Assembly: GCA_035603345.1 (NCBI GenBank)
Contig: DATNKO010000057.1
Coordinates: forward strand, 7-64,006
DNA length: 64,000 nucleotides
From: Steroidobacteraceae bacterium
GTDB taxonomy: Bacteria > Pseudomonadota > Gammaproteobacteria > Steroidobacterales > Steroidobacteraceae
Direction: 5' to 3'
Shown piece after piece: positions 60,023-61,432 of this stretch (within the stretch, counting starts at the first letter, position 1; each line of letters begins with the position of its first letter). Made by a program: the position numbers and the translations under genes. The notes under the pieces are model-generated. The model was not told the DNA's origin. It did not search any database and worked only from the letters and a program-made list of their open reading frames with translations.

Positions 60023-61432
60023 CTAGGGTCCACAAGAAACTTTGCCCGGAACTAAGAAGCTAAAGTAGAAATTGACGCGAGAGCTACCAGGCGCGCTACT
60101 CTGACGCGCGGCATTGCAAAGCAATTGGTTACATGCCTGAAGACTGTTTGAATCTGTGACCGACAGGTCTGAAAAGTTTGACATTGCTGAGAACCTAGAG
60201 CCGTAGCACATATCGTGCAACTGACAGGCTTCATCTAAGTCATTGACTGGCGGTCCCGCACCGCCCGGCCCGCACCAATGAGTCCCGAACATCCGTGTGG
60301 GATAGGGGGCAGTAACTACAACTTCTGGAAGCTGCTGCGGCTGATTCCCTTGCGGCACTGTTTGCGGTTGCTGACCAGTTAGACTCGCAACGCTAGGGAT
60401 GCCAGTAGGGAATGGCGACAAGTCTATGGGAACCTGACAGTGAGCGCACACAGTGACCGTGCAGATTCCCTGGCCGCCGTTCTCCGGGCCCGGAGCGCAA
60501 GTGGTTGGTGGCGTGAGGTCGACGGTAGCTGACGGGCATCCGATGAGACAACCCCTGCTCTGATCGATGGGGTTCGCAAGGCTGGAGGCGATGTCATCAA
60601 GTCCCGCCAAGAAGCCTTGGTCTGGATCCGCAGAAGCCGCCGCAAACTGCTGCATTGCTGAATTATTGAACCCAGCGTCGCCAGGATCGGAGCCCCCGCA
60701 TACCCGACATTTGCCCAAGCCTGAGCCGGCATCCTGTTTGCACGCCCACGCCGGCGTGCAGAACCCGGAGGGATCGGTCAAGGTAAGCGGATTGTTGTTC
60801 GCATAACTGTACTGGTTATAGCTCTGCGGGTCGGTTCCATCGGGAACGTGCGGATCGGCAGACAGCATGCGCCCGGTGATCGCGTCCTCCACCCGGCCGT
60901 TCATGTGGTTCATGCCCATCCAGAGACCCAGTTGCGTTTGGAAAGTATAGCCCTGACGAGTAATGCCGGCGACCGTGGTCAGATCCGAGTTGCTGGCCGC
61001 ACCGGACCAGGTCGTGGGATTCCGACGCTGCCCGAATGGCGTGAAGCTTTCGTTGACGATGCTCGTGCCGCTGCTGTTGGTGAGATCGGACACACTCCCC
61101 TGGTGATCGGAGAGCGCGTAGCTGAACGTGTTGCCCGCGCTTGAACGCGCGTACACGGCAACCGGCTCACTGCCGGCGTAGATATAGTGCCGGTAAGTGG
61201 TGGTTGACCCGCTCGAGACGACTTCCATGAGACCCCCGACGTAATTGGTGGTTTCGCTCGTCCCGTTCCCGGTATACATCTGCTGCCAGCGGCTCCGATC
61301 CGGGCCATAGGAAAAGGCGACGGTCTCGGCCGTCGACCCGCTGCCGGCATTCACGGTGGTCGGATAGTTGTAGCTCGACCAGACGATCGAGTTGCCCTGA
61401 CGCGCGGTCGCATTGCCGTTCGCGTCGTAAAG
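60023..61432 (-). pseudogene. Rhs/YD-repeat protein, C-terminal fragment with a PLA2-like toxin domain (5' truncated)
   Basis: Open from the TGA at 61433-61435. Has YDANGN, YRHYIYAGSEPVAVY, SDHQGSV, TPFGQRR and the core end NPLTLTDPSGF. A 12-Cys linker follows, then WCGPGGAG...CQLHDMCY. Confidence 0.8.
60334..60357 (-). repeat. 24-nt handle, Rhs copy
   Basis: Encodes PQGNQPQ immediately upstream of the toxin domain. Confidence 0.85.

Follow-up and report, generated by a model that had tools for sequence, protein, structure and literature searches.

Near one end of a 64,000-nucleotide (nt) stretch of contig DATNKO010000057.1 (assembly GCA_035603345.1, from a Steroidobacteraceae bacterium; hereafter the window), the minus strand carries what we read, with a probability of roughly three in four, as the 3′ quarter of an Rhs toxin gene of about 2,050 amino acids (aa). 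Its cargo would be of the secreted phospholipase A2 (sPLA2) type, with a membrane immunity gene beside it, and the whole would be an undeliverable, silent copy. This reading is carried by the anatomy of the locus, its homology, the conservation of key residues, the truncation of the gene and the synteny of toxin and immunity genes. The kind of toxin is already known, while its apparently metagenome-only subfamily, the His-Asn pair at its predicted active site and its own candidate immunity family are new.

The frame in question runs from 61432 to 60026 on the minus strand (469 codons) and stops at 60023-60025. Its text begins as YD repeats (YDANGN...) and runs into the Rhs core end NPLTLTDPSGF at residues 214-224, both as described in an earlier note made from the letters of the DNA alone. 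Further landmarks are PQGNQPQQLPEVVVTAP at residues 360-376, HWCGPGGAG at 385-393 and CQLHDMCY at 403-410. The parts of the frame are as follows.

60761..61432, minus strand: Rhs core 3′ remnant, 224 aa (TIGR03696; motifs RMLSADP ... NPLTLTDPSGF, of the autoproteolysis type)
60305..60760, minus strand: variable linker, 152 aa, of low complexity and with 10 Cys; PQGNQPQ hinge near its end, ending with PQGNQPQQLPEVVVTAP
60026..60304, minus strand: sPLA2-like toxin domain, 93 aa (Pfam and PDB matches, family conservation, structural model)
60254-60277, minus strand: Ca loop WCGPGGAG, part of the sPLA2-like domain
60203-60226, minus strand: catalytic helix CQLHDMCY, part of the sPLA2-like domain
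60113-60133, minus strand: third helix CNQLLCN, part of the sPLA2-like domain
60032-60034, minus strand: C-terminal Cys of the sPLA2-like domain, ahead of the stop at 60023-60025

The PLA2-like tail and its predicted active site

On the evidence of its sequence, the tail belongs to a secreted-PLA2-like family. When isolated, it matches PF00068 with an E-value of 3.7e-7 (31.1 bits, gathering score 32.1) and PF08398 with an E-value of 1.1e-5 (26.1 bits for the isolated domain and 23.1 for the whole fragment, gathering score 23.9), along with a weak match to PF05826 (16.4 bits, gathering score 22). Among PDB sequences, group I sPLA2 is matched at an E-value of 2e-6 with the single sequence and of 1e-10 with the family profile, and the Ca loop and catalytic helix of the window align without gaps to residues 28-54 of group I sPLA2. 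PF09056 gave no match at E <= 1, and its motifs DxC[ST] and CxxHxxxYxN are absent from the domain, which has the WCGxGG / HDxCY type instead.

To place the domain within a family, we ran an exhaustive HMMER search over 1.84 billion representatives, taken at 50% identity, which returned 679 relatives at E <= 1e-3, of which 215 also reached E <= 1e-10. The 153 retrieved sequences that were analysed comprise the 150 best matches and three found earlier, and conservation was read from 126 full-length domain representatives. Within CxxHDxC (CQLHDMC at window residues 403-409), the Cys, His, Asp and Cys are each present in 126/126, and in the Ca loop (WCGPGG, window residues 386-391) 124 of the 126 have the Cys and 120-125 have the Gly residues. 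The PLA2 domain ends 25 residues or fewer from the C-terminus in 135 of the 153 sequences, RHS_repeat was matched in all five long carriers scanned, and of the 82 hits whose sequence reaches far enough upstream, 48 have an Rhs core-end motif ahead of the PLA2 domain, at a median distance of 101 aa. All records of the subfamily apparently derive from metagenomes, where they go under the names "hypothetical" or "RHS repeat-associated protein". The earlier note had proposed the sPLA2-like tail and would have given it up had no PLA2 hidden Markov model (HMM) or structure matched, or had WCGxGG/HDxCY varied among homologues; HMM and PDB sequence matches were found, the structural matches are to PLA2s but weak, the motifs are conserved in the 126 representatives, with the catalytic residues invariant, and the proposal stands.

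A scan of genome contigs yielded no close family members, only distant open reading frames (ORFs) with PLA2 motifs in Firmicutes, Deltaproteobacteria and Nitrospirae (L005-L012). These Ca-loop/HD-motif ORFs lie in Macrococcus, Rossellomorea, Bacillus, a Marinisporobacter metagenome-assembled genome (MAG) and MAGs of Deltaproteobacteria and Nitrospirae, and plasmid hits with a Ca-loop/HD motif (H1-H30) include Staphylococcus and Methylobacterium genes annotated 'phospholipase A2 family protein'. Therefore, sPLA2-like domains in bacteria reach further than the Rhs context alone suggests. At two other loci (L001, 1303-2884; L002, 222-2223), two divergent PLA2 modules stand in tandem; their identity to the window domain is 35%, and behind each lies a small hydrophobic ORF of a different kind (130 aa and 91 aa).

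An AlphaFold model of the domain, built from an 82-sequence alignment, is all-helical, with a predicted local distance difference test (pLDDT) score of 93.3 and a predicted template modelling (pTM) score of 0.85; it replaced a first prediction from 6 sequences, which had a pLDDT of 66 and gave only noise in Foldseek. When the model was searched against the PDB, the top 32 matches were all sPLA2s, but weak ones (E >= 0.18, TMq 0.3-0.35), and the superposition is good only at the Ca loop and helix. Against the viral library, the top matches were all parvovirus VP1 PLA2 (E 0.017, probability 1.0, template modelling (TM) score 0.45-0.6). The predicted fold thus agrees with a PLA2 identity and is not decisive.

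How the domain relates to the known sPLA2 groups depends on which part of it is compared. Aligned by hhalign, the family profile matches bovine PLA2 with 97% probability, over only 33 ungapped columns, and bee-venom PLA2 with 92% probability, over 74 columns. The spacing from the Ca loop to the His is exactly that of groups I/II, where bee venom carries 2+4 inserted residues, while the 29 residues from H406 to N435 in the third helix compare with 30 in bee venom; the whole window domain aligns best to group III and parvoviral PLA2s. The bee-venom group III spacing that had been claimed at first sight is accordingly correct from the His to the third helix and incorrect from the Ca loop to the His.

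The third helix holds the most distinctive residue of the family. In the hhalign alignment, C434-N435 falls on C63-D64 of bee venom, where D64 is the Asp of the catalytic dyad. The co-occurrence of cysteines independently agrees with this register, in that 23 of the 24 representatives without C439 also lack the C-terminal Cys, which implies disulfides C439-C467, C409-C434 and C387-C403 and would make C434 the counterpart of Cys98 in groups I/II and of Cys63 in group III. A phmmer register, which put an Ala at the Asp99 position, was judged less reliable than the one given by hhalign and Cys co-occurrence. The residue after C434 is Asn in 123 of the 126 representatives and Asp in three, and in the window domain the dyad Asp (Asp99 in groups I/II, Asp64 in group III) is absent, with Asn435 in its place. 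As far as these alignments tell, the domain has group I/II spacing up to the His, is group III- or parvovirus-like beyond it, and has a near-invariant His-Asn replacing His-Asp.

PLA2 domains on Rhs carriers have precedents. Tox-PLA2 was described at the C-terminus of RHS/ALF-repeat polymorphic toxins and predicted to target lipids; it was defined on a Streptomyces-type fold (PDB 1kp4) with the motifs DxC[ST] and CxxHxxxYxN, and came without a listed immunity family (Zhang et al., 2012; PMC3482391). In contrast to this Tox-PLA2, or group XIV (PF09056), the window domain has the animal-type motifs WCGxGG ... CxxHDxCY. The Neisseria cinerea protein Nte1 is a PAAR-Rhs effector with a PLA2_like (cd00618) C-terminus, and its PLA2 domain, which Nti1 neutralises, is toxic only in the Escherichia coli periplasm (Custodio et al., 2021, eLife; PMC8263058). 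The window locus resembles Nte1/Nti1 in its Rhs carrier, its C-terminal PLA2_like domain and its adjacent candidate immunity gene, whereas the window clade differs from the PAAR-Rhs form in having a signal-peptide-like N-terminus, SpvB and FG-GAP. Because Tox-PLA2 had been catalogued (PMC3482391) and Nte1 found to be toxic (PMC8263058), the earlier statement that no sPLA2-type domain on an Rhs carrier had been characterised was wrong.

With group I/II sPLA2s (bovine pancreatic 1BP2, elapid venom), the window domain shares about 50% identity over about 30 residues and a Cys29-Cys45-type pair; however, just one third of it aligns, it has 93 aa against about 120, it lacks the N-terminal helix and the beta-wing, it has three predicted disulfides against seven, and Asp99 is replaced by Asn. 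It shares a compact helical layout with group III (bee venom, PF05826) and parvovirus VP1u (PF08398), which are its best structural matches, but bee venom inserts 6 residues on the way from the Ca loop to the His, disulfides are absent from the parvoviral domains, and the dyad Asp is retained in both. Tle1-5 of type VI secretion systems (T6SS) are also antibacterial phospholipase effectors with dedicated immunity proteins, yet their folds and chemistry are unrelated, and a regular-expression search of the window protein found neither GxSxG nor HxKxxxxD. The Tle/T6SS frame of reference is probably the wrong one for the window clade, since the relatives are SpvB/FG-GAP/RHS proteins with a signal-peptide-like N-terminus and none of the three scanned has a PAAR match.

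In essence, the locus brings no new class of system, and the window copy is most likely non-functional as a weapon, but the subfamily (679 representatives at 50% identity) extends the short list of PLA2-type polymorphic toxins, and an unannotated candidate immunity family is now paired with it. That the members form a distinct bacterial sPLA2 group, with a hybrid body, a working His-Asn pair and a dedicated inhibitor in the form of a 90-aa polytopic membrane protein, is a tentative proposal with the odds against it. If true, the 90-aa protein would represent a previously undescribed mode of sPLA2 inhibition, and a natural His-Asn sPLA2 with a membrane-protein inhibitor would be of interest both to PLA2 enzymology and to soil interbacterial antagonism. 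Should the family turn out to be ancient and common among Rhs carriers, it might also mark the pool of bacterial toxins that supplied animal and viral sPLA2s.

The truncated frame and its intact relatives

Upstream of the tail, the frame is a remnant of an Rhs core. The RHS repeat-associated core domain (TIGR03696, Rhs_assc_core) scores 34.6 bits against a cut-off of 32.5 over residues 132-223 (60764-61039), and with the accompanying motifs it ends in the PxxxxDPxG[LF] form of the autoproteolysis type. The order expected of an Rhs locus is also present, with a variable C-terminal toxin, then a conserved downstream ORF, then an orphan cassette with a 24-nt hinge; this hinge is an exact repeat encoding PQGNQPQ, found at 60334-60357 (before PLA2) and at 59641-59664 (the start of the second cassette). 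A Pfam scan of the window fragment gave no match to PF05593, and the long YD/RHS array and the N-terminal delivery region are missing, with 224 core residues left. The window copy is thus a fragment of a member of the Rhs polymorphic toxins, not a functional member. It is 51% identical to residues 917-1374 of P0006, a 1,375-aa RHS protein with the same PLA2 domain at its end, and about 30 metagenomic Rhs cores are 63-79% identical to it, in alignments that mostly end at or just past the core end, near residue 224.

The linker that joins core and toxin has 152 aa, which fits the stretch of about 150 aa noted before; the 12 Cys attributed to it come to 10 on counting, and 6 further Cys sit in the PLA2 domain. 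Among the 48 family representatives with a core-end motif, the linker measures 63-137 aa in 45 (median 101). The idea that this Cys-rich stretch is a conserved domain was rejected, and the linker is better described as a spacer, because linkers cannot be aligned between members and their Cys counts vary from 2 to 10.

The 5′ end of the frame lies close to a tRNA gene and to a direct repeat that marks an integration site, arranged as follows.

61454..61530, minus strand: tRNA-Arg, anticodon ACG (ARAGORN; Rfam RF00005, 65.6 bits)
61449..61498, no strand: left 50-nt direct repeat, the 3′ 45 nt of the tRNA and 5 flanking nt; exact 50/50 copy of 57242-57291
61431..61448, minus strand: 18-nt spacer from the repeat to the Rhs breakpoint; it holds the TGA that closes the frame upstream, and the identity to L021 stops here

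A metagenome scan returned 47 related loci, two of which show both sides of the break. Locus L021 (1-1036) is 100% identical to window 61430-59178, and its frame goes on upstream for at least 345 aa as Rhs core, while L022 (1-2630) is 100% identical across the junction of tRNA-Arg and Rhs in the window. Therefore, intact and truncated alleles both exist in nature, in public metagenomes. The gene breaks off at 61430/61431, only 18 nt short of the integration-site repeat, a position that hints at a recombinase-associated deletion. The distance of 13 nt from repeat to frame reported earlier is that between the repeat and the preceding TGA; the first codon lies 16 nt from the repeat. As the junction was seen in at least two samples, it is unlikely to be an assembly artefact. 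Over the 8 kb compared, the window is identical to the ENA metagenome scaffold WILH17-1 scaffold_163.

At the level of sequence, the 5′ truncation of the Rhs gene is proven, with an intact allele in L021 and with full-length relatives of 2,015-2,201 aa, and the earlier suggestion that the core was cut short is borne out. These relatives are encoded by single ORFs, with SpvB, FG-GAP repeats and RHS repeats behind a signal-peptide-like N-terminus; a scan of three of them gave no match to a PAAR domain. Compared with them, the window copy lacks about 1,600 N-terminal residues, and the missing 5′ part of the gene does not occur elsewhere in the 64-kb window. The locus is a clean natural case in which one Rhs gene, sited at a tRNA integration hot spot, is found both whole and truncated. 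In one full-length relative (L013, at about 7697-7711), a run of 10 C puts the SpvB/FG-GAP ORF out of frame with the Rhs-PLA2 ORF (P0006), which reflects either a sequencing error or a phase-variable homopolymer.

The candidate immunity gene, the proposed mechanism and its rivals

Directly downstream of the toxin frame lies a small gene for a hydrophobic protein.

59694..59966, minus strand: candidate cognate immunity gene, 90 aa, with two clear hydrophobic segments and one weaker one by hydropathy

The 90-aa protein has no Pfam or NCBIfam match. At the other fetched loci with downstream sequence, homologues of it (37-77% identity) lie 0-70 nt 3′ of the PLA2 ORF, and about a dozen distinct pairs of a PLA2 ORF and a 90-aa-type ORF were found. 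Because of this strict synteny and its co-divergence with the PLA2 ORF, the 90-aa membrane protein is likely to be the cognate immunity factor. Short PLA2-plus-immunity cassettes elsewhere adjoin integrase/primase elements and transposases. In L017 (9633-9986; also in L018 and L019), an uncalled orphan PLA2 ORF of 117 aa and its immunity gene stand right after an element with a primase and a tyrosine integrase, which suggests that the cassette moves with an integrative element, at its edge.

Five parts of our account are inferred: that the domain is a lipase, how its disulfides pair, that the 90-aa protein gives immunity, how the toxin is delivered and that the window copy is silent. In the intact type, the protein would be ordered as a signal-peptide-like N-terminus, SpvB, FG-GAP, an RHS-repeat cocoon, the Rhs core, the linker and the toxin. 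Intact relatives would be exported by the Sec pathway, with the toxin kept unfolded in the Rhs cocoon until aspartyl autoproteolysis at DPSG|F frees it. In an oxidising compartment, either the target periplasm or the cell exterior, the freed toxin would fold with three disulfides into a compact, Ca2+-dependent phospholipase of the sPLA2 type, with His406 as the catalytic residue, Asp407 as the Ca ligand and N435 at the dyad position, and, using the Ca2+/His chemistry of sPLA2s, would cut membrane phospholipids at the sn-2 ester, while the 90-aa membrane protein shields the producer. In the window, a rearrangement would have severed the gene 18 nt from the tRNA-Arg integration-site repeat and left the copy in an integrase-less, low-GC islet. 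This copy is probably not deliverable, because about 1,600 N-terminal residues have been lost, including the export signal and most of the cocoon; it may persist as a silent toxin cassette, whose immunity genes may stay useful.

Several observations weigh against this account. The PF00068 score falls slightly under the gathering score (31.1 versus 32.1 bits), the Foldseek E-values are weak (0.017 or worse), and the global TM score to groups I/II is only about 0.3. The replacement of the dyad Asp by Asn may lower activity, by analogy with the engineered bovine D99N mutant (PDB 1CEH, one of the Foldseek matches in the PDB). An enzyme assay exists for no member of the window subfamily. It is also unusual for a lipase effector to have its immunity protein embedded in the membrane; the Tli proteins, which counter Tle lipases, are either periplasmic proteins or lipoproteins. 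Finally, an internal GTG at 61354, or transcription running on from the tRNA, could still give expression of the fragment, although a promoter scan found no sigma-70-like promoter for it.

A first rival reading is that the window copy is not dead. With its frame open through 469 codons and its sequence matching the intact allele at 100% identity, the fragment could be a displaced orphan cassette that acts as a recombination donor, in which homologous recombination via the 670-nt core remnant or the 24-nt hinge would load it onto a full-length rhs gene elsewhere in the genome and switch the toxin/immunity type of the strain. Fragments at other loci begin 18-77 aa upstream of the same point (e.g., L024, L025, L028, L030 and L034), short cassettes of PLA2 plus immunity gene are common next to integrases and transposases, and the hinge repeat is common to the PLA2 cassette and the next one. 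However, the 64-kb window is without a full-length rhs gene, and an identity of 100% also fits a very recent deletion without any selection, so that a donor role is conceivable but doubtful.

Other readings concern what the intact toxin does. An enzyme that targets eukaryotes (protists, fungi or invertebrates) in the style of Tc toxins, with the membrane protein protecting the producer during export only, would suit the combination of SpvB, FG-GAP and RHS, which is the TcB/TcC-type toxin architecture, and sPLA2s are classic anti-eukaryote venom components. It would also suit the lack of a PAAR match in the three full-length relatives scanned, and no VgrG-like gene was recognised in the gene lists of related loci or among the eight large window ORFs, where neighbours were not searched systematically. 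We nevertheless consider such a target unlikely, as tight, co-diversifying toxin-immunity pairs and orphan arrays are a hallmark of interbacterial polymorphic toxins (PMC3482391), orphan immunity genes without a toxin gene occur (L020), and Nte1 acts in the bacterial periplasm (PMC8263058). Less probable still is that the PLA2 fold has been kept without lipase activity, as a membrane-binding or pore-promoting module like the inactive Lys49 myotoxins. In its favour are the Asn found for the dyad Asp in 123 of 126 members and the membrane-embedded immunity protein, a trait shared with the immunity proteins of pore-forming toxins. Against it, inactive PLA2 homologues characteristically lose Asp49 or the loop, whereas here the His and the Asp that binds Ca never vary in the 126 members and the glycines of the Ca loop hardly do.

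The second cassette and the surrounding islet

Beyond the candidate immunity gene, the following features complete the region.

59303..59686, minus strand: second orphan toxin cassette without an Rhs core, made up of the hinge, a Pro/Gly-rich stretch and a glycine-zipper-like hydrophobic domain
59073..59306, minus strand: 77-aa hydrophobic ORF, candidate immunity gene of the second cassette, 39% identical to the ORF directly after the L033 Rhs gene
58236..58811, minus strand: tetratricopeptide-repeat (TPR) ORF, a 191-aa open frame with 110 aa from the first ATG; islet cargo (Pfam TPR_1, E 1.9e-33)
57242..57291, no strand: right 50-nt direct repeat at the far end of the islet, exact copy of 61449-61498
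57122..57171, no strand: degenerate third repeat copy with a 17-nt exact core, AATCTCTCCGGGCGCGC, 120 nt past the right repeat

The second cassette could encode a membrane-disrupting toxin. Running from hinge to toxin to immunity gene, it follows the usual pattern of Rhs orphan arrays; the 77-aa ORF overlaps the stop codon of the second toxin, and neither has a family assignment. In L033 (about 1250-1580), an Rhs ORF ends in a similar glycine-zipper-like C-terminus after a QGNQP hinge, and the hinge shared by the window and L033 suggests that toxin swapping may occur at this point, downstream of the classical DPxGL boundary.

The two 50-nt repeats bound a 4.2-kb islet (57292-61448), and the exact repeat had 0 matches in shuffles. 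The islet has a GC content of 0.567, against 0.692 for window positions 1-52000, and no integrase or integrase remnant was found within it. On the minus strand it holds, in order, the Rhs-PLA2 fragment, the 90-aa ORF, the second cassette, the 77-aa ORF, the TPR ORF and a 75-aa ORF. The degenerate third repeat copy is probably the scar of an earlier integration and suggests repeated integration and excision at tRNA-Arg. Outside the islet follow a larger TPR protein (54722-56257) and then a methyltransferase. The GC content is lowered (about 0.58-0.64) from roughly position 53000 onward, so that the foreign or variable region may exceed the 4.2-kb islet.

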